7,024 nucleotides of DNA from a virus. Lineage: Duplodnaviria > Heunggongvirae > Uroviricota > Caudoviricetes. Under the pieces are notes generated by a model. It had not been told where the DNA came from and made no database searches. It worked only from the letters and a program-made list of their open reading frames with translations. Each line of letters begins with the position of its first letter. Position 1 is the stretch's first letter. Both the position numbers and the translations under genes were made by a program. This document shows positions 1-5,066 of the stretch, in pieces. The stretch is from IMG/VR virus record IMGVR_UViG_2547132272_000021, positions 1 through 7,024 of that record; one strand, written 5' to 3'.

Positions 1-87
1 CCATACCCACGGATTACGGGTGCTGGTCACTGCCCCTTCCAGCTTAAGCTCTCCGCTGAAATCCTCTCCCGGCGTGTTCCAGTGTGA
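1..87 (+). CDS. Possible 3' end of an unidentified upstream gene (partial, enters from left edge)
   Basis: Frame 1 is open from the window edge to TGA at 85-87 and the stretch is visibly GC-richer than the following AT-rich intergenic DNA. The opposite strand is also open here but has no in-frame ATG/GTG/TTG before its stop at 181-183, so + is favoured. No product recognisable from about 28 codons. Confidence 0.25.
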   Translation, partial: PYPRITGAGHCPFQLKLSAEILSRRVPV

Positions 88-475
88 TGGTTCATGATAA
101 ATACGAAAAGAATAATCCGGGATTAGGTTAGTAAAGACGGGAATAGATTGGAGTGAAAAATCTTTTGTATCAGCAGTTTGTTAGCGCAAAGATATGTGTT
201 GGTAAAGTTATCCCTTCATTTCTGTGAAACACGAAAAAATGAAAGGATTACGTGATTGTTTCACTAAAGAGGCGAAAAGATGGTTGATTGTATAAAGTCT
301 TCAAATATGTTCAAAACCGCTTCAATACTGCATTTGAAGCTGGTTTAAGGTGGGGCATAGGTGTCTGATAACAGAATTTACTATAAACTTTGTTGATGCA
401 TCATGAATTTAAATGTTTTTATTTAAAATCAATGCGTTAGTGAATATTACATGATACATAGGTGTAAAGTAGCGC

Positions 476-493
476 ATTGCATATCTATGCAAT
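476..493. promoter_or_regulatory. Perfect 8-2-8 palindrome ATTGCATA-tc-TATGCAAT, candidate operator for a dimeric regulator
   Basis: Read directly: ATTGCATA (476-483) and TATGCAAT (486-493) are exact reverse complements; it lies about 25 bp upstream of a candidate -35 hexamer. Confidence 0.4.
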
Positions 494-517
494 ATGTGTC
501 GGATGTGCATAAACACT

Positions 518-550
518 TGCCAACCAATTTTATTGTTGATAACTTATAAA
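518..550 (+). promoter_or_regulatory. Candidate sigma70-type promoter (TTGCCA, about 17 bp spacer, TAACTT/TATAAA) pointing rightward
   Basis: Hexamers read by eye at 518-523 and 541-550 with roughly canonical spacing, just upstream of a hairpin and an intrinsic terminator. Not computed with a promoter model. Confidence 0.25.
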
Positions 551-633
551 AGCACTCGATAAAGTCGAGTGTCGGGCGTAGGAACCCGTGTAAGCACATG
601 GCGACACAAGACGCGCCAAGCGTCTTTTTTATT
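551..633 (+). ncRNA. Candidate short terminated transcript (small RNA or leader), about 80 nt
   Basis: 5' hairpin CACTCGA-taaag-TCGAGTG (553-571), a short stem CGGG/CCCG (about 573-588) and a terminator hairpin plus T-run at 608-633, all directly downstream of the candidate promoter. No ORF with an RBS inside. Confidence 0.3.
608..633 (+). terminator. Rho-independent terminator (AAGACGC-gccaa-GCGTCTT followed by TTTTTTATT)
   Basis: 7-bp GC-rich stem (608-614 / 620-626), 5-nt loop, T-run 625-630 then ATT. Confidence 0.55.
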
Positions 634-689
634 GTCGTAATATCAGCGCACCTGCATTCAGTGGCTTATGGTGCACCGTATCTATGGTG

Positions 690-800
690 GCGCTGGTGGG
701 GCAGTCGAAAGGCTGGCCGGTTTCCTTGTGCGCCGGTATTCCTACCCCCGCCAGCGTCACCGCCCCTTATGAGTGTAGGAACTCAGGCGGTGACTCCTTA
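690..800 (+). ncRNA. GC-rich structured leader upstream of the icd-like gene; candidate C4/CI-type antisense RNA or cis-regulatory structure
   Basis: Long-range pairing GCGCTGGTGGGG (about 691-702) with CCCCGCCAGCG (about 746-757, one G-U), plus hairpin GTCACCGCC (757-765) / GGCGGTGAC (785-793). The six-frame ORFs here (598-801, 684-896) lack RBSs. In phage P1 an icd gene follows the c4 antisense RNA in the immI operon. Confidence 0.3.
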
Positions 801-823
801 AATTTGCACGAGGAGGCTGCCAA

Positions 824-1021
824 ATGGCTACGACCCCAACCACTTTACGCTCTGAATTTACCTTTCATTTTCTGGCTGTTCGCCGTTCCGATCTGAACGA
901 CCGCCCACACCGCGAATCTATTAACGCACCTGATGAAGCAACTGCCCGTCGTATGCTGGCACGTGATTTTGTGTTGGTGTTTGCTGCCTGCATCCCTGCT
1001 AAAGGGGGTAAACATGAATAA
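824..1021 (+). CDS. Small protein (65 aa), probably host cell division inhibitor Icd-like family
   Basis: Strong SD GAGGAGG at 812-818, 5 nt before ATG 824. The sequence (FLAVRRSDL ... ARDFVLVFAA) matches my recollection of Icd-like proteins found in P4-like and P1-like elements; not verified by search. Its stop overlaps the start of the next gene (ATGAATAA). Confidence 0.55.
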   Translation: MATTPTTLRSEFTFHFLAVRRSDLNDRPHRESINAPDEATARRMLARDFVLVFAACIPAKGGKHE

Positions 1022-1418
1022 TGTTGTCAAGTTTCCGGTGCGGAATAATAAAAAAGTTGCGAAATCGAGAGAAGATATTGCTGTAAATCTGTTTAAAGAT
1101 ATTGTTGCTGCTTTATCAAAACAGGCGCGTGACTATATTAATGATGGCGTTACCGGGATCAATGGATGCCTAGATGGTAATGGCGGATATGAAACCTTTC
1201 TATCCTCTTTGTTGCTTTATATTCGTGGCATTGACTCAAAAATTGGCCTGTTTAGTATGTCTCTTGATTCAATACATCCAATACTACATGATGCATGCAA
1301 TGACTTAACGAAAGTTATTTCCCTGACGGAGCGTTTTATTGAAAGTAGAGGCGTAATCGCAGAGGCGGCAAATGGAAAACTTACAGAAGAACAAACGCGG
1401 CAGACTTTCAAAAATTGA
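1014..1418 (+). CDS. Hypothetical protein (134 aa), function unknown
   Basis: ATG 1014 preceded by strong SD AAAGGGGG (1000-1008); overlaps the icd-like stop and is overlapped at its 3' end by the next gene, implying translational coupling. AT-rich codon usage. The six-frame ORF beginning at 933 is out of frame with icd and has no RBS, so 1014 is preferred. Confidence 0.6.
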   Translation: MNNVVKFPVRNNKKVAKSREDIAVNLFKDIVAALSKQARDYINDGVTGINGCLDGNGGYETFLSSLLLYIRGIDSKIGLFSMSLDSIHPILHDACNDLTKVISLTERFIESRGVIAEAANGKLTEEQTRQTFKN

Positions 1419-1734
1419 ATTGCTGCCTGAAAAGATAAAAAGGAAGCTTGATAAAATGCTTATCTCACGTAAGTATTCTCAGGCTGAAATTCTAAATATC
1501 ATAGATCAGGATATAGTAATAGCAGGGTGTTCAGAACTGGTCATATCCAAAACCGGATTGAACAGATATGCGATTAGTTTAATCAATGCTGTTTCGGTAG
1601 CCAAGAAGCATGGAGAAGTGTCTCGCCGTTATAAGCATGCCGAACTACACAGGAGACTTGATAAACTTGAATCAAAGATAGACAGATTAGGGACCAGACT
1701 TGAACGAGTGTTAGAGCTTCTCGAAAAACATTAA
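1372..1734 (+). CDS. Mu gp27-like DNA-binding protein (DUF3486 family; putative small terminase-like or packaging/regulatory protein), 120 aa
   Basis: SD AGAGG at 1361-1365, 6 nt before ATG 1372. N-terminal motif RGRLSKIELLPEKIKRKL ... SQAEILNII ... SKTGLNRYAISL matches the pattern I recall for Mu gp27/DUF3486 proteins (GRKS.ID.LP.EIR ... S.S.L.RY), followed by a coiled-coil-like C-terminus. Ends immediately before an intrinsic terminator. Confidence 0.7.
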   Translation: MENLQKNKRGRLSKIELLPEKIKRKLDKMLISRKYSQAEILNIIDQDIVIAGCSELVISKTGLNRYAISLINAVSVAKKHGEVSRRYKHAELHRRLDKLESKIDRLGTRLERVLELLEKH

Positions 1735-1742
1735 CTATCCCA

Positions 1743-1768
1743 AAGCCGCCCCGTGCGGCTTTTTTATT
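1743..1768 (+). terminator. Rho-independent terminator (AAGCCGC-cccgt-GCGGCTT followed by TTTTTTATTGT)
   Basis: 7-bp GC-rich stem (1743-1749 / 1755-1761), 5-nt loop, T-run 1760-1765, about 10 nt after the stop of the gp27-like gene. Confidence 0.7.
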
Positions 1769-1938
1769 GTTTGGCACTCGCTGTACATATCAGCGCATAT
1801 TTCATGGAAAACGGTAAATCTATCTTCCCTAAAAATCCCGAGTAATCTCACAGCATCCAGAGCAAACGGAGATGGTTCTTTTTTGAAAAAATTATGTTTT
1901 ATCACAATCGGGGATAAACTTATTTTTGATTCCCATAT

Positions 1939-1973
1939 CCGCAATAATCGTTATCGTAACATTGCGGATAACG
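1939..1973. promoter_or_regulatory. Overlapping dyad symmetries (CCGCAAT/ATTGCGG and CGTTATC/GATAACG), candidate operator upstream of the 2055 operon
   Basis: CCGCAAT (1939-1945) with ATTGCGG (1961-1967) and CGTTATC (1949-1955) with GATAACG (1967-1973) are exact reverse-complement pairs in the intergenic region preceding the next gene. Confidence 0.35.
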
Positions 1974-2054
1974 TTAAGTTTGCTGCAAGCATTGGCTATC
2001 GCGCATCGCGCTCAAATGTACACAGGTATATGCAAAAGCTTAAGCGAGAAGATT

Positions 2055-2783
2055 ATGGCTAAACAAACCTTTAAAAATCTCATGTTAACGCCGCCACACA
2101 ATGATATTACAGCGATAAATAAATTCATTGTTTCTTCATGCTTTTCTCGTGATATCTGTGATGTTATGTCTTATATCGGTAAAATGGGATATGCATGTAA
2201 TTATAATGAAGTCAGTGAGCATGTGAAATTGATTGAAAAACAATTCCACGCAGTAAAACATGAACAGAGAGGCGAGTGTGAAATTGATGTTTTTTGTAAT
2301 GTCGCAGGCACCGCTCTCTTTAATGAATTTATATCTGTTTGCGGGAAACAGACGTTCTATCTTGATGCAATGAAATTTGAACCGGATTTTTTTAGTGGTG
2401 GCCCGGTTAAGCATATCCGCAAAACTGCTATTATCGCTTTATTGAGAAATGAAACAAAGATTCTTCCAGAAAGTGTGACCATGATTATGGGCGCTATTGA
2501 GGCGGCATTAAAAAAAATTGGAGTAGACCCACAAGAAGAAGTAAACAGCACGACAAAAATATTCATTGCAACAAAGGCATTTCTGGAAGTTGTAGGTGGA
2601 ATTCAGTTTTATTTACCTAAGGCCGACTCACTTAGTAGAATAATGAAAAAAGCAAATATATATGCAGATAGTTATGTTATGTCTCCTGCTGAACTAGCTA
2701 TTAAATATGGGGAGTCTGGTAAATCGATATACACAACAATAAAACATGTAGGAGCGGTTATTGGTAATCATGAGCAAAGTTAA
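2055..2783 (+). CDS. Hypothetical protein (about 243 aa from ATG 2055; alternative starts at 2016 or TTG 1926), function unknown
   Basis: Long open frame with AT-rich codon usage; ATG 2055 has a weak SD-like GAGAAG 4 nt upstream, whereas 2016 and 1926 lack one. Cys-containing N-terminal half; no catalytic motif recognised. 3' end overlaps the next gene by 14 nt. Confidence 0.6.
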   Translation: MAKQTFKNLMLTPPHNDITAINKFIVSSCFSRDICDVMSYIGKMGYACNYNEVSEHVKLIEKQFHAVKHEQRGECEIDVFCNVAGTALFNEFISVCGKQTFYLDAMKFEPDFFSGGPVKHIRKTAIIALLRNETKILPESVTMIMGAIEAALKKIGVDPQEEVNSTTKIFIATKAFLEVVGGIQFYLPKADSLSRIMKKANIYADSYVMSPAELAIKYGESGKSIYTTIKHVGAVIGNHEQS

Positions 2784-3192
2784 CATAAATAATGCACACA
2801 TATTACAAACAGGTCTGAGCCTCGGTATTGATGTAATGAGAAGTAATCTTCCTGAAGAGTTAAAACTTGTAGAACGTGCAGTTATTGAATCATGTAATGA
2901 TATTGGCTTAAATCCAGAGCATGAAATTAATGGTTTATCATTTATTGGTCGGGTCATATTAAAAATAATGGAACTACAAACCGGATGTAGTTTCATACCT
3001 GAGTATGCGATTGATTCATCCAGAATTATTTTTATTTCTAAAGTTGCTGCATATGCAGAAAAATTTGGAGCAGATAAAGCAGCCAAAGCCTACTCCATTA
3101 CAGTAGATCAGGTTACGGAAATGATGAATGAAGCAAGTATGTTTGTTTCCCAATTTGATGATTTTGGTATAGACAAGGAGAAAAGCCACTGA
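2770..3192 (+). CDS. Hypothetical protein (141 aa), function unknown; translationally coupled to the upstream gene
   Basis: ATG 2770 lies inside the end of the previous ORF (14-nt overlap); continuous open frame with the same AT-rich composition; no recognisable domain. Confidence 0.6.
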   Translation: MSKVNINNAHILQTGLSLGIDVMRSNLPEELKLVERAVIESCNDIGLNPEHEINGLSFIGRVILKIMELQTGCSFIPEYAIDSSRIIFISKVAAYAEKFGADKAAKAYSITVDQVTEMMNEASMFVSQFDDFGIDKEKSH

Positions 3193-3246
3193 AACACGCT
3201 GTGATGTTGTTTTGTCTTATCGGCGGTGTTCTGGGTGCCCTGCACC

Positions 3247-3290
3247 TTTTTGAAGGTGCTACGGTGTTTTTGAAGGGGTTTTGAAGGGGG
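3247..3290 (+). repeat. Three direct copies of TTTTTGAAGG(GG) immediately upstream of the head-gene operon; candidate activator-binding or late-promoter element
   Basis: Copies at 3247-3256, 3267-3278 and 3279-3290; the last G-run may double as the SD for ATG 3301. A related TTTTTTGAAAAAA occurs at about 1880-1893 upstream of the 2055 operon. Confidence 0.4.
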
Positions 3291-3300
3291 TTTTGCATCC

Positions 3301-4140
3301 ATGACAGAGGAACTAATGAATATAATCGCTTTATGCACTGATTTATCGGGTGATAAGACTCCTCCGGAATGGGTTGAGTTACTGCCAGCAGGACCGGAAA
3401 TTGAAGGGCGTGACGGAAGGAGCTGGACACTTAAAGATCCACAAAGCATTAAACAGGCGTTTTCGTGTCGCGGAATGTCACTTGTGGTCGATTATGAACA
3501 CTCTACAGAAGTGATTGCACCAAAAGGTGGCGAGGCTCCTGCCGCCGGATGGATTAATGACGTTGCTGTCCGTAATGATGGTTCTGTATGGGGAAGAGTT
3601 GAATGGACTCCACGGGCAATGAATTCCATTACATCCCGTGAATACCGATACCTTTCACCAGCGTTCCGTCATTCTCAGGATGGTGAAATACTGGAACTCG
3701 TTAGCGTGGCGTTAACGAATAAACCAAATCTGAAACTTACTGCGCTGAATACTCAGCAGACACTTAGCAAAATCGCACTGGCACTTAATATGGAGGAAGT
3801 TAATTCACTTGAAGAAGTGCTGACAGCGTTAAATAAAAGACAAGCTGAACAACATAGTCAGATTGTAAATGAATATATCGAAAAAGCTGTTTTCTGTCCG
3901 GCCCAGCGGAATATTCTTCTGTCCATGTGTTCAAGTGTTGGAGAAAATGCATTCAGGAAGTTTGCTGATATGCAGGAAAAATCGACGAGTAATTTTTTAC
4001 ACTTTGCTAGGCCTGTAAGTGTAAAAGGTAAAGAACCCCCGAGAACGCTTACTGAATCGCAACTGGCTGTTTGCCGCATTACAGGTGTAAGCGAAGAAGA
4101 CTATTTGATAGCTTTAGGAAAAGAAAATGAAAGATATTAA
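3301..4140 (+). CDS. Mu I-like head maturation protease / scaffold protein (279 aa)
   Basis: Sits immediately upstream of, and overlaps by 14 nt, a clear Mu gpT-like major head gene, which is the Mu I-T arrangement. Motifs VEWTPRA, YRYLSPAF and ALTNKPNL fit my recollection of the Mu-like prophage I protein family; the C-terminal third is helical and charged, as expected for a scaffold. An alternative start at ATG 3316 (SD GAGG 3307-3310) is possible. Confidence 0.72.
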   Translation: MTEELMNIIALCTDLSGDKTPPEWVELLPAGPEIEGRDGRSWTLKDPQSIKQAFSCRGMSLVVDYEHSTEVIAPKGGEAPAAGWINDVAVRNDGSVWGRVEWTPRAMNSITSREYRYLSPAFRHSQDGEILELVSVALTNKPNLKLTALNTQQTLSKIALALNMEEVNSLEEVLTALNKRQAEQHSQIVNEYIEKAVFCPAQRNILLSMCSSVGENAFRKFADMQEKSTSNFLHFARPVSVKGKEPPRTLTESQLAVCRITGVSEEDYLIALGKENERY

Positions 4141-5023
4141 TTGTGTAATTGCTGATGCTACTATCGCTTTTAACGCCAAGTTTGAATCAGGAAAAAAAGC
4201 CTACAATCCTGTACATCCAACGATTGCTTCAGAAGTAACGTCTTCATCGGCAGTTAGTGCTTATGGCTTCCTCGAAGATTTCCCGGAAATCAAAGAGTGG
4301 TTAAACGACCGACAGTTAAAATCACTGTCAACCCGTGATTATTTTCTGAAAAATAAAACGTTTGAAAGCAGCATTCAAATTAAACGTGAGGATTTTGAAG
4401 ATAATGATTATGGTAAGTATTCAATGGTTTTTGAACAGTACGGGCGCAAAGCGGCTGCATTCCCTGATAAGTTACTGTTTGAAGCTATGAAGAAAGGGCA
4501 CTTATCAGAAGGAATTGATGGGCATAACTTCTTTGCTACTGACCATCCTAATGGTGAAGGCGTTTATTCAAACCTCTATGGAAGCAATCCAGCAAAAAAT
4601 GCAGATGCAACGCCGTTATGGTACTTATTTGATGGTAGTCAGGGATTGAAACCTTTTATTTATCAGGTTCGTCGTCCAATGGCTGTAACTTCTGTTACTG
4701 ATTCCGGCGCTACCGATGTGTTTCTGAATAATCGTTTTCTGTTTGGTGTTGATGGGCGTCTTAATGTTGGATATGCAATGTGGCAATGCGCAGCGGCATC
4801 ATGGGATACGCTGAATGAAACCACATTTAATGAAGTGTACGACGGGATGTTATCCGTTAAGGGAAGTAGCGGTGAACCATTGGGAATCGTGCCTACTGTT
4901 ATTGTAGTCCCCGTATCGTTAAGAGCCGCAGCGGAAAAATTGCTGTTACGTCAGTATCTGGATAACGGGGAAGACAATCCAAATTATAAACGCGTGGAAA
5001 TTATTGTTTCACCATTTATTTGA
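4127..5023 (+). CDS. Major head (capsid) subunit, Mu gpT-like family (298 aa)
   Basis: SD AGGAA at 4116-4120 before ATG 4127. Multiple motifs match the Mu T protein as I recall it: NKTFE, EDFEDN, GRKAAAFPD.LLFEA, GHNFFATDHP, WYLFDGSQGLKPFIYQ.R, NVGYAMWQCAA, VVPVSLRAAA, NGEDNPNY. Length also matches. Confidence 0.85.
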   Translation: MKDINCVIADATIAFNAKFESGKKAYNPVHPTIASEVTSSSAVSAYGFLEDFPEIKEWLNDRQLKSLSTRDYFLKNKTFESSIQIKREDFEDNDYGKYSMVFEQYGRKAAAFPDKLLFEAMKKGHLSEGIDGHNFFATDHPNGEGVYSNLYGSNPAKNADATPLWYLFDGSQGLKPFIYQVRRPMAVTSVTDSGATDVFLNNRFLFGVDGRLNVGYAMWQCAAASWDTLNETTFNEVYDGMLSVKGSSGEPLGIVPTVIVVPVSLRAAAEKLLLRQYLDNGEDNPNYKRVEIIVSPFI

Positions 5024-5029
5024 TAATTC

Positions 5030-5054
5030 GGAGGGGATTTCCCCTCCTGTTTTT
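5030..5054 (+). terminator. GC-rich hairpin plus short T-run just after the capsid gene stop; possible partial terminator/attenuator
   Basis: GGAGGGG (5030-5036) - attt - CCCCTCC (5041-5047) followed by TGTTTTTAT. The T-run is short (5 T) and overlaps the first candidate ATG of the next gene. Confidence 0.4.
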
Positions 5055-5066
5055 ATGGGGAATATA

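Follow-up and report, generated by a model that had tools for sequence, protein, structure and literature searches.

The window analysed here, a stretch of 7,024 nt corresponding to positions 1 to 7,024 of the virus record IMGVR_UViG_2547132272_000021 (Caudoviricetes), contains a Mu-type insertion element that carries its own control region. This region, at 476-1021, is very likely the regulatory head of an early operon of the class represented by the immI region of phage P1, the immunity region of the satellite P4 and the isrK locus of the prophage Gifsy-1. It comprises an IsrK-type leader RNA ending in an intrinsic terminator, an antisense RNA of the C4 family and an icd-like gene, with the two recognition sequences of C4, termed a' and b', matched by target copies both upstream (a1 and b1) and downstream (a2 and b2). 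The identification draws on the family membership of these parts, their structures, the complementarities between them together with the co-variation of these across related loci, and the geometry by which icd is coupled to the gene that follows it. An earlier note, made from the sequence alone, had recognised a resemblance to the antisense RNA immunity modules of P1 (c4) and P4 (CI), and this is borne out both by C4 and IsrK matches above the Rfam gathering thresholds and by recognition loops that co-vary with their targets. As an IsrK-C4-icd module, the region is a known kind of phage immunity switch and is ordinary in itself; its specificity, as given by b', is unique among the types compared.

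The antisense RNA, its leader and their co-variation

The covariance-model search that the earlier note had proposed returns a match to the Rfam C4 family covering the complete model (positions 1-87 of 87), with a score of 77.1 bits against a gathering threshold of 45 (E = 2.7e-14). The matched segment folds with a free energy of -48.8 kcal/mol (z = -4.4), and its minimum-free-energy fold has the same shape as the family structure: a 16-17 bp closing stem, a hairpin capped by GAAA, a second hairpin with b' in its loop and a single-stranded junction containing a'. Strong structure had been noted at 690-800 and is present, but the role of a leader then given to this GC-rich segment is not upheld, as it is the C4 gene itself followed by the downstream target hairpins. 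The latter are two in number and are formed by 768-821 (z = -2.5 for the fold of 768-830), one presenting a2 and the other sequestering the Shine-Dalgarno sequence of icd. The a2 sequence lies at a constant offset from C4 in all related loci, and b2 forms ten contiguous pairs with b', including two G-U pairs. The pairings of a' with a1 and with a2 were also recovered independently, as the inverted repeats I2 and I3, in a repeat search.

Upstream of C4, the transcript of about 80 nt that had been proposed at 551-633, consisting of hairpins and a terminator, is well supported as a predicted RNA. A scan of the whole window matches the full isrK model at 552-630 (59.4 bits, gathering threshold 50), a terminator scan finds an intrinsic terminator at the end of this segment, and the fold of 552-633 has a free energy of -30.2 kcal/mol (z = -3.7 relative to shuffled sequences). 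The spacer between the two RNAs, 634-679, is unstructured (z = +1.0). This terminated RNA is the leader carrying the upstream copies of the C4 targets, a1 and b1. The Rfam c4-a1b1 model (RF03163) scores 21 bits at 539-592, below its gathering threshold of 46.7; P1 and Gifsy-1 pass this model, whereas the leader in the window is a better fit to isrK, with the a1 and b1 elements still present. The defining features of the C4, IsrK and Icd-like families that were tested are all found in the module, and over 566-885 the window has 72% DNA identity to the immunity region of the P1-like phage D6 and 73% to that of P4.

Related loci were compared using a set of 80 viral loci collected with an Icd alignment, and 84 sources were scanned with C4 and leader models built for this analysis. 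C4 was found directly upstream of an icd-like gene in 81 of the 84 sources, and an IsrK-type leader was found upstream of C4 in 82 (leader model R2). The co-variation that the earlier note had suggested looking for across homologues is evident: in the alignment of 28 distinct C4 sequences, pairing holds in 99.6% of cells, and compensatory changes on both sides are seen for 17 of the 27 pairs. None of 500 shuffles reached the observed level, and sliding the partners left 30-50% of cells paired. The C4 alignment was fitted to the model, which favours structure, but the conclusion is safe given the size of the effect and the outcome of the slid controls.

Across 81 loci, the scaffold of the RNA is near constant, whereas a' and b' are hypervariable and freely recombining, with six types of a', eleven types of b' and 20 combinations of the two. 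Without exception, a1 and a2 match the a' of their own locus at 7/7 positions, and b' is matched within a locus at a mean of 7.75 of 8 positions by b1 and 7.65 of 8 by b2; comparison of loci that differ in specificity gives means of 4.9 of 7 for the a sequences and 4.6 of 8 for the b sequences. For instance, a single base in each of a' and b' separates the window from L010, its nearest relative, whose a1, a2, b1 and b2 are changed to match. The b' of the window is absent from the other 19 specificity types, and in every related locus b2 ends in GGAG, the Shine-Dalgarno sequence of icd. Such co-variation in trans is the pattern expected of an antisense specificity determinant, and constitutes the main evidence that the module works in the manner of P1 c4 and P4 CI. 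Selection on the RNA is also apparent among copies of the element itself, in which 575-830 is nearly identical beside diverging proteins encoded by orf134, the 134-aa orphan gene of the operon (78-87% identical).

Some of the related loci have peculiarities of their own. In two P4-like viral contigs (L049 and L076), the b' loop is mismatched to the b1 and b2 of the same locus (5.5-7 of 8), and these may be hybrid or immunity-defective variants. Phage D6 (L003) has a second, divergent C4-like RNA at 2059-2138, about 470 nt upstream of its main isrK-C4 pair, which scores 40-42 bits and is therefore just below the Rfam threshold. The closest relative of the control region, L006 (IMGVR_UViG_2778261544_000011), is also followed by a gene resembling that for Mu Gp27; genes for a ParB-like protein and a TET-associated glycosyltransferase precede its control region, and an IS3-family insertion lies downstream.

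Proposed mode of action and competing explanations

Transcription from the candidate promoter, either constitutive or modulated through the upstream dyad, would start near 552, and most transcripts would end at the intrinsic terminator (608-633), giving an IsrK-type RNA of about 80 nt that displays a1 and b1. Transcripts reading through the terminator would contain C4, which would be excised from this precursor, just as the c4 and CI RNAs of P1 and P4 are cut from a longer precursor by RNase P. The a' junction and the b' hairpin loop of C4 would then pair with a2 and b2 on the read-through mRNA and, because b2 overlaps the Shine-Dalgarno sequence of icd, ribosomes would be excluded and icd left untranslated. 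The genes coupled to or overlapping with it, encoding the 134-aa orphan and a Gp27-like, putative small-terminase-type protein, would be silenced as well, up to the terminator at 1742-1768, with Rho-dependent polarity probably reinforcing the silencing of the operon. Since the short RNA carries the same target sequences, it could titrate C4 and thereby switch the operon on, and the pair of a' and b' sequences would set the specificity of immunity. In this scheme, it is predicted from the sequence where the transcripts end, that the RNA is processed, in which direction regulation runs in vivo and that the short RNA serves as a decoy.

Experimental observations are available for Gifsy-1 (Hershko-Shalev et al. 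2016, PMC4825925), in which the terminator is partly read through, supplying IsrK in trans leads to about 140-fold more translation of the downstream coupled genes, and a processed RNA of about 80 nt accumulates; IsrK was likened to P4 seqA, and the processed RNA to CI, by the authors of that study. The IsrK mutations G28A and G31A were found to act through pairing with C162 and C159 (PMC4825925). When these positions are mapped onto the Gifsy-1 locus as analysed here, G28 and G31 appear to fall in the a1 loop and C162 and C159 in a'. The Gifsy-1 locus scores 79 bits with the isrK model, 69 bits with C4 and 48 bits with c4-a1b1, and its C4-family RNA (L095, 34131-34316, minus strand) occupies the place of both 'orf45', as published, and the processed RNA STnc1160.

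It is conceivable, though rather unlikely, that pairing of C4 has the output described for P4, acting mainly through premature termination at the IsrK terminator and/or a Rho-dependent site, with the block on icd being secondary. The DNA likeness to the P4 immunity region is as close as that to D6 (73% against 72%), P4 has the same isrK and C4 pair and a mechanism of this kind described in literature quoted in PMC4825925, and a strong terminator stands between a1/b1 and C4; but the placing of b2 over the Shine-Dalgarno sequence, ending in GGAG in every locus, argues for ribosome exclusion as the primary effect. The two outputs are compatible, because untranslated mRNA invites Rho. The short RNA might also, or even mainly, act in trans on host mRNAs as an Hfq-dependent small RNA, given that its Rfam family is described as Hfq-binding and that its terminator hairpin and U-tail are as in typical RNAs of this type; this is improbable, however, in view of the co-variation of its exposed sequences with the C4 of the same locus and not with any host gene, although no search for host targets was made. 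There is very little likelihood that the module is an inherited relic without present function in the element. Slight imperfections in b1 and b2, and a 3' tail of GCCC rather than GCCA, would suit such decay, but 575-830 is almost invariant across E. coli, Salmonella and Shigella next to a protein with 78-87% identity, all six recognition elements still match, and the icd frame and the coupling geometry are intact in every copy.

A protein has also been annotated across the antisense RNA. The earlier note had described overlapping open reading frames (ORFs) at 598-801 and 684-896, both of which are present in the ORF list, and had considered that these reflect an RNA and not a protein. If 684-896 encoded an Ash family protein that was a real regulator, this would account for its match to the Pfam family Phage_ASH (PF10554; 56.9 bits, cut-off 26), for the 'ash family protein' coding sequence annotated by RefSeq in every copy (642-896 in the window, with equivalents in L001, L090-L093 and L103), and for the frame being open across C4 in 25 of 27 distinct loci. 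That proposition is nevertheless scarcely credible. The Pfam match spans exactly the C4 RNA plus a2 and b2; variable columns are distributed evenly over the codon positions, both in stems (9/11/8) and in unpaired regions (9/9/10), with substitutions that compensate one another in the RNA; the 'Ash' start codon lacks a Shine-Dalgarno sequence; the frame closes early in P1 and D6, at 28 aa and 39 aa respectively; and in P4-like loci the ORF would start upstream of the promoter. The 'Ash' protein is probably the translation of an RNA gene, as are the RefSeq and Pfam annotations, and the original view of these frames stands.

Several points weigh against the interpretation favoured here, in which C4 keeps ribosomes from icd and the short RNA acts as its decoy. 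In Gifsy-1, constitutive expression of a C4-like RNA did not relieve IsrK toxicity (PMC4825925), such that a simple titration picture is incomplete. Within the window, the mismatch in b1 and the two G-U pairs of b2 make recognition less perfect than in almost all relatives, from which the element also departs in that b1 and b2 differ from each other; the strengths of the pairings may have a different tuning in this element. Beyond the closing stem, the C4 tail is GCCC, as against GCCA in most relatives, which could affect processing of the RNase P type. The Shine-Dalgarno sequence of icd is predicted to be sequestered in cis, leaving room for some intramolecular control. By consensus the promoter is weak, its -10 sequence matching at 3/6 positions, and the start, the efficiency of the terminator and the processing are all inferred for this element.

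Promoter region, operon genes and feature coordinates

The palindrome that the earlier note described as perfect is present as a dyad (Table 1), but its symmetry does not run through the middle, the 2 nt centre being non-symmetric. This centre lies about 67 bp upstream of the predicted start. When the window is searched for the same pattern with up to three mismatches, the exact site and one site with three mismatches are found, against 0.10 expected from shuffles. No change in the dyad is seen among any of the copies of the element from E. coli, Salmonella and Shigella, even in L100, the most divergent copy, which has about a dozen substitutions in the approximately 45 nt directly upstream. 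The Salmonella copy L096 has an otherwise unrelated promoter region, in which the position of the dyad is taken by TTTGCATA-CA-TATGCATA with an overlapping ATGCATAA-CTA-TTATGCAT. Retention of the core TTGCATA-N2-TATGCA in this copy supports a protein-binding site, for which the dyad is a candidate only. An operator for the P1 C1 repressor was considered and rejected, the Oc4 site of P1 being the asymmetric 17 bp sequence AATGCTCTAATAAATTT, with no resemblance to the dyad; nor does a similar dyad occur in the two full Mu-like prophages examined.

For the candidate sigma-70 promoter, sequence features provide moderate evidence. A generic sigma-70 promoter scan missed the site, finding none in front of the RNA, and the assignment consequently rests on inspection and conservation: the layout read from the sequence by eye is kept in L010, and the equivalent in P4 is TTGCC-N17-TATAGT. 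The predicted start, at about 552, coincides with the first base of the IsrK model match.

The first gene of the operon is the small Icd-like ORF that had previously been proposed at 824-1021, and its identity is confirmed by an NCBIfam match (NF033153, 71.8 bits). The Icd proteins of P1 and D6 can be aligned with its product, as can an Icd-like frame in P4; a division-inhibiting activity is predicted. Its Shine-Dalgarno sequence, GAGGAGG, is 7 nt upstream of the ATG. The P1 order of c4, icd and ant, which the earlier note had invoked, holds as far as icd, but the gene coupled to it is a 134-aa orphan and not an Ant homologue. The orphan shares the position of ant in P1 and of epsilon in P4, a likeness of position only: it has no match in Pfam, NCBIfam, PHROGs, PADLOC or PDB, no Ant, Bro or KilA domain and no similarity to P4 epsilon. 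It has only five homologous protein clusters, all from E. coli, Salmonella or Shigella, and its all-helical AlphaFold model, with a mean predicted local distance difference test score (pLDDT) of 47, is unusable. The Gp27-like gene overlaps the 3' end of the orphan gene, and BLASTP gives 45% identity between the N-terminal 70 aa or so of its product and the Gp27/DUF3486 protein of a Mu-like prophage. Weak isrK and Trp-leader matches at the end of the operon (1742-1768) were dismissed, as they reflect the terminator only.

Table 1. Positions of the features of the control region, the operon and the ends of the element within the window
Feature	Position	Strand	Details
Mu-type left end	83-290	+	starts TGTGATGGTTCATGATAAATACGAAAAG; MuA-site-like motifs at 88-111 and 257-280
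Dyad symmetry, ATTGCATA-TC-TATGCAAT	476-493		8-nt arms, 2-nt centre; candidate protein-binding site
Candidate sigma-70 promoter	517-545	+	-35 TTGCCA 517-522; 17-bp spacer; extended -10 TG 537-538; -10 TAACTT 540-545
IsrK-family (P4 seqA-type) leader RNA	552-633	+	Rfam RF01394
Leader hairpin 1	552-572	+	
Leader hairpin 2	573-588	+	a1 in loop
a1, GUAGGAA	578-584	+	loop of second IsrK hairpin; 7/7 to a'
b1, GCACAUGG	594-601	+	7/8 to b', one mismatch
Intrinsic terminator	608-626, U-run to 633	+	terminator scan
C4 / CI-type antisense RNA	680-767	+	Rfam RF01695
b', UUCCUUGUGC	722-731	+	C4 second-hairpin loop
a', UUCCUAC	739-745	+	single-stranded C4 junction
a2 target, GUAGGAA	775-781	+	loop of hairpin 770-785; 7/7 to a'
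b2 target, GCACGAGGAG	806-815	+	overlaps icd Shine-Dalgarno GAGGAGG 810-816
Icd-like gene, 65 aa	824-1021	+	first translated gene of the controlled operon; NF033153, 71.8 bits (cut-off 25)
Orphan gene, 134 aa	1014-1418	+	ATG 5 nt before icd stop codon, hence translationally coupled
Mu Gp27-like gene, 120 aa	1372-1734	+	Pfam PF11985; PHROG 'terminase small subunit'; last operon gene
Strong intrinsic terminator	1742-1768	+	8-bp stem plus T-run (terminator scan); closes operon
Mu-type right end	6930-6980	+	ends TTTCGCGCTTTTTGTGAGATGCTTTCGCGCTTTTTGTGAAACGCCTCA

The carrier element and comparison with known systems

The larger point of the finding is the carrier element, rather than the control region. 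It occupies 83-6980 (6,898 bp) within a faeI-like fimbrial gene, flanked by the target site duplication (TSD) TCCAG at 78-82 and 6981-6985; that it is an insertion follows from the sequences on either side, 1-82 and 6981-7024, being contiguous in faeI of many plasmids. E. coli chromosomes contain the same block elsewhere, and its termini are TGTGATGGTTCATG... and ...GAAACGCCTCA in every case. TSDs of 5 bp are present at the seven sites for which both ends were read, namely TCCAG, GCCAG, TCCAC (twice), CTGAG, ATCAG, which belongs to the Salmonella copies, and ACCCA, which belongs to a short form of the element; an eighth insertion, in puuC, is shown by the split gene. The element occurs in 9 of 5,426 complete E. 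coli genomes, in 14 places, with one genome having two copies that encode identical proteins, one of them splitting puuC. These insertions inactivate host genes, the fimbrial gene in the window and puuC, ycaN and the flg operon in other genomes. The short form, 4,764 bp in length and found in Shigella boydii and E. coli assemblies (L100-L102), has the same control region and ends, and carries protease, capsid and two small Mor-like genes without a tape-measure gene.

In the window, the element encodes Gp27-like, Mor-like, Mu I-protease, Mu T-capsid and tape-measure proteins. The Mor-like protein (2049-2783) has the Mor domain in residues 140-243 only, with an N-terminal extension of about 135 aa that has no detectable family. 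None of the ORFs of 83-6980 has a transposase or integrase domain according to searches of Pfam, NCBIfam and PHROGs, which makes the element non-autonomous. Two full Mu-like prophages, L104 (E. coli RIVM_C036569, 1775-35463) and L094 (4,5xx-38,5xx), have similar ends. At least six of the nine carrier genomes contain such a Mu-like prophage, as compared to 95 of 5,426 E. coli genomes overall, a co-occurrence that is suggestive only, since the carriers are partly clonal. Identity to the proteins of Mu-like prophages is 87% for the tape measure, 43% for the capsid and 34% for the protease. An origin as a recent deletion derivative of a co-resident Mu-like prophage was rejected on the basis of the capsid and protease values, and of a compact layout conserved across three genera. 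Directly upstream of the protease gene lies a 51 bp stretch (3244-3294) with three TTTTGAAGG repeats, which is 88-90% identical to its equivalent in Mu-like prophages and may be a shared late-regulatory site; the genes flanking it are only 34-43% identical at the protein level.

Taken together, these features suggest that the carrier is probably a satellite, a non-autonomous Mu-type element with P4-style RNA immunity. It is proposed more tentatively that the module is the lysogeny or activation switch of a family of Mu-dependent satellites, 4.8-6.9 kb in length, which have Mu-type ends, no transposase and a capsid and protease of their own; members of this family carry Mor-like and Gp27-like genes and sometimes a tape-measure gene. 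A co-resident Mu-like phage would provide for the transposition and packaging of such an element, the RNA immunity would replace the protein repressor of Mu, and exploitation of the helper would begin with icd, the 134-aa orphan and the small-terminase-like Gp27. A true satellite of Mu-like phages would represent a new form of satellite mobility, in which the replicative transposase of the helper is borrowed in place of an integrase, and would be a natural counterpart of laboratory mini-Mu. No description of Mu-type satellites was found in the open-access literature, which leaves prior work elsewhere possible.

Among known systems, the immI region of P1 and P7 has the same order of parts, the P1 record listing a C1 operator (Op51), two promoters (P51), a1, b1, c4, a2, b2, icd and ant. 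C4 also folds in the same way, its second hairpin holding b' in the loop and a' lying in the junction 3' of it, and in both cases b2 lies over the icd Shine-Dalgarno sequence and translation of the icd homologue is coupled to that of the following gene. By contrast, the recognition sequences differ, and so do the leaders: the window has a complete IsrK-type RNA ending in a strong terminator, while the leader of P1 scores 35 bits with isrK, which is below the threshold, and 51 bits with c4-a1b1. In the window there is neither a C1-repressor operator over the promoter, the dyad not being one, nor an Ant gene coupled to icd, where the orphan stands instead, as would be needed for a complete P1 immI operon.

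The immunity region of P4 (PLE, seqA, CI RNA and seqC) shares the 73% DNA identity over the module, the isrK and C4 pair, which is also found in D6 and in a viral contig, and an Icd-like frame downstream. P4 likewise offers a parallel for immunity based on RNA only, with no protein repressor gene, in a small element that is apparently dependent on a helper. It differs in specificity and in the spacing between leader and C4, which is about 108 nt in P4 and 49 nt in the window, and the genes of a P4-like satellite, for an integrase, the alpha primase/helicase and sid, psu or delta, are absent from the ORFs of the carrier element. Similarly, the isrK-orf45-anrP locus of Gifsy-1 begins with an IsrK-family RNA and its terminator, after which come a C4-family RNA and coupled genes. 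There, however, an antirepressor-like gene comes directly after C4 and orf45 overlaps C4, whereas the window has a separate icd-like gene.

With Mu-like phages and laboratory mini-Mu, the element has in common TG...CA termini like the L1 and R1/R2 sites of Mu, 5 bp target duplications, counted at eight insertion sites with seven distinct sequences, and Gp27, Mor, I protease, T capsid and tape-measure genes of Mu type. It differs in being without the A or B transposase, the c or ner regulator, the portal, the large terminase and the other tail genes, and in having an RNA immunity module of the P4 and P1 type where Mu has its repressor and early region. The IsrK-C4-icd cassette is confirmed as a portable immunity unit able to swap specificities, common to P1-like plasmid prophages, P4-like satellites, lambdoid prophages such as Gifsy-1 and now a Mu-type element.

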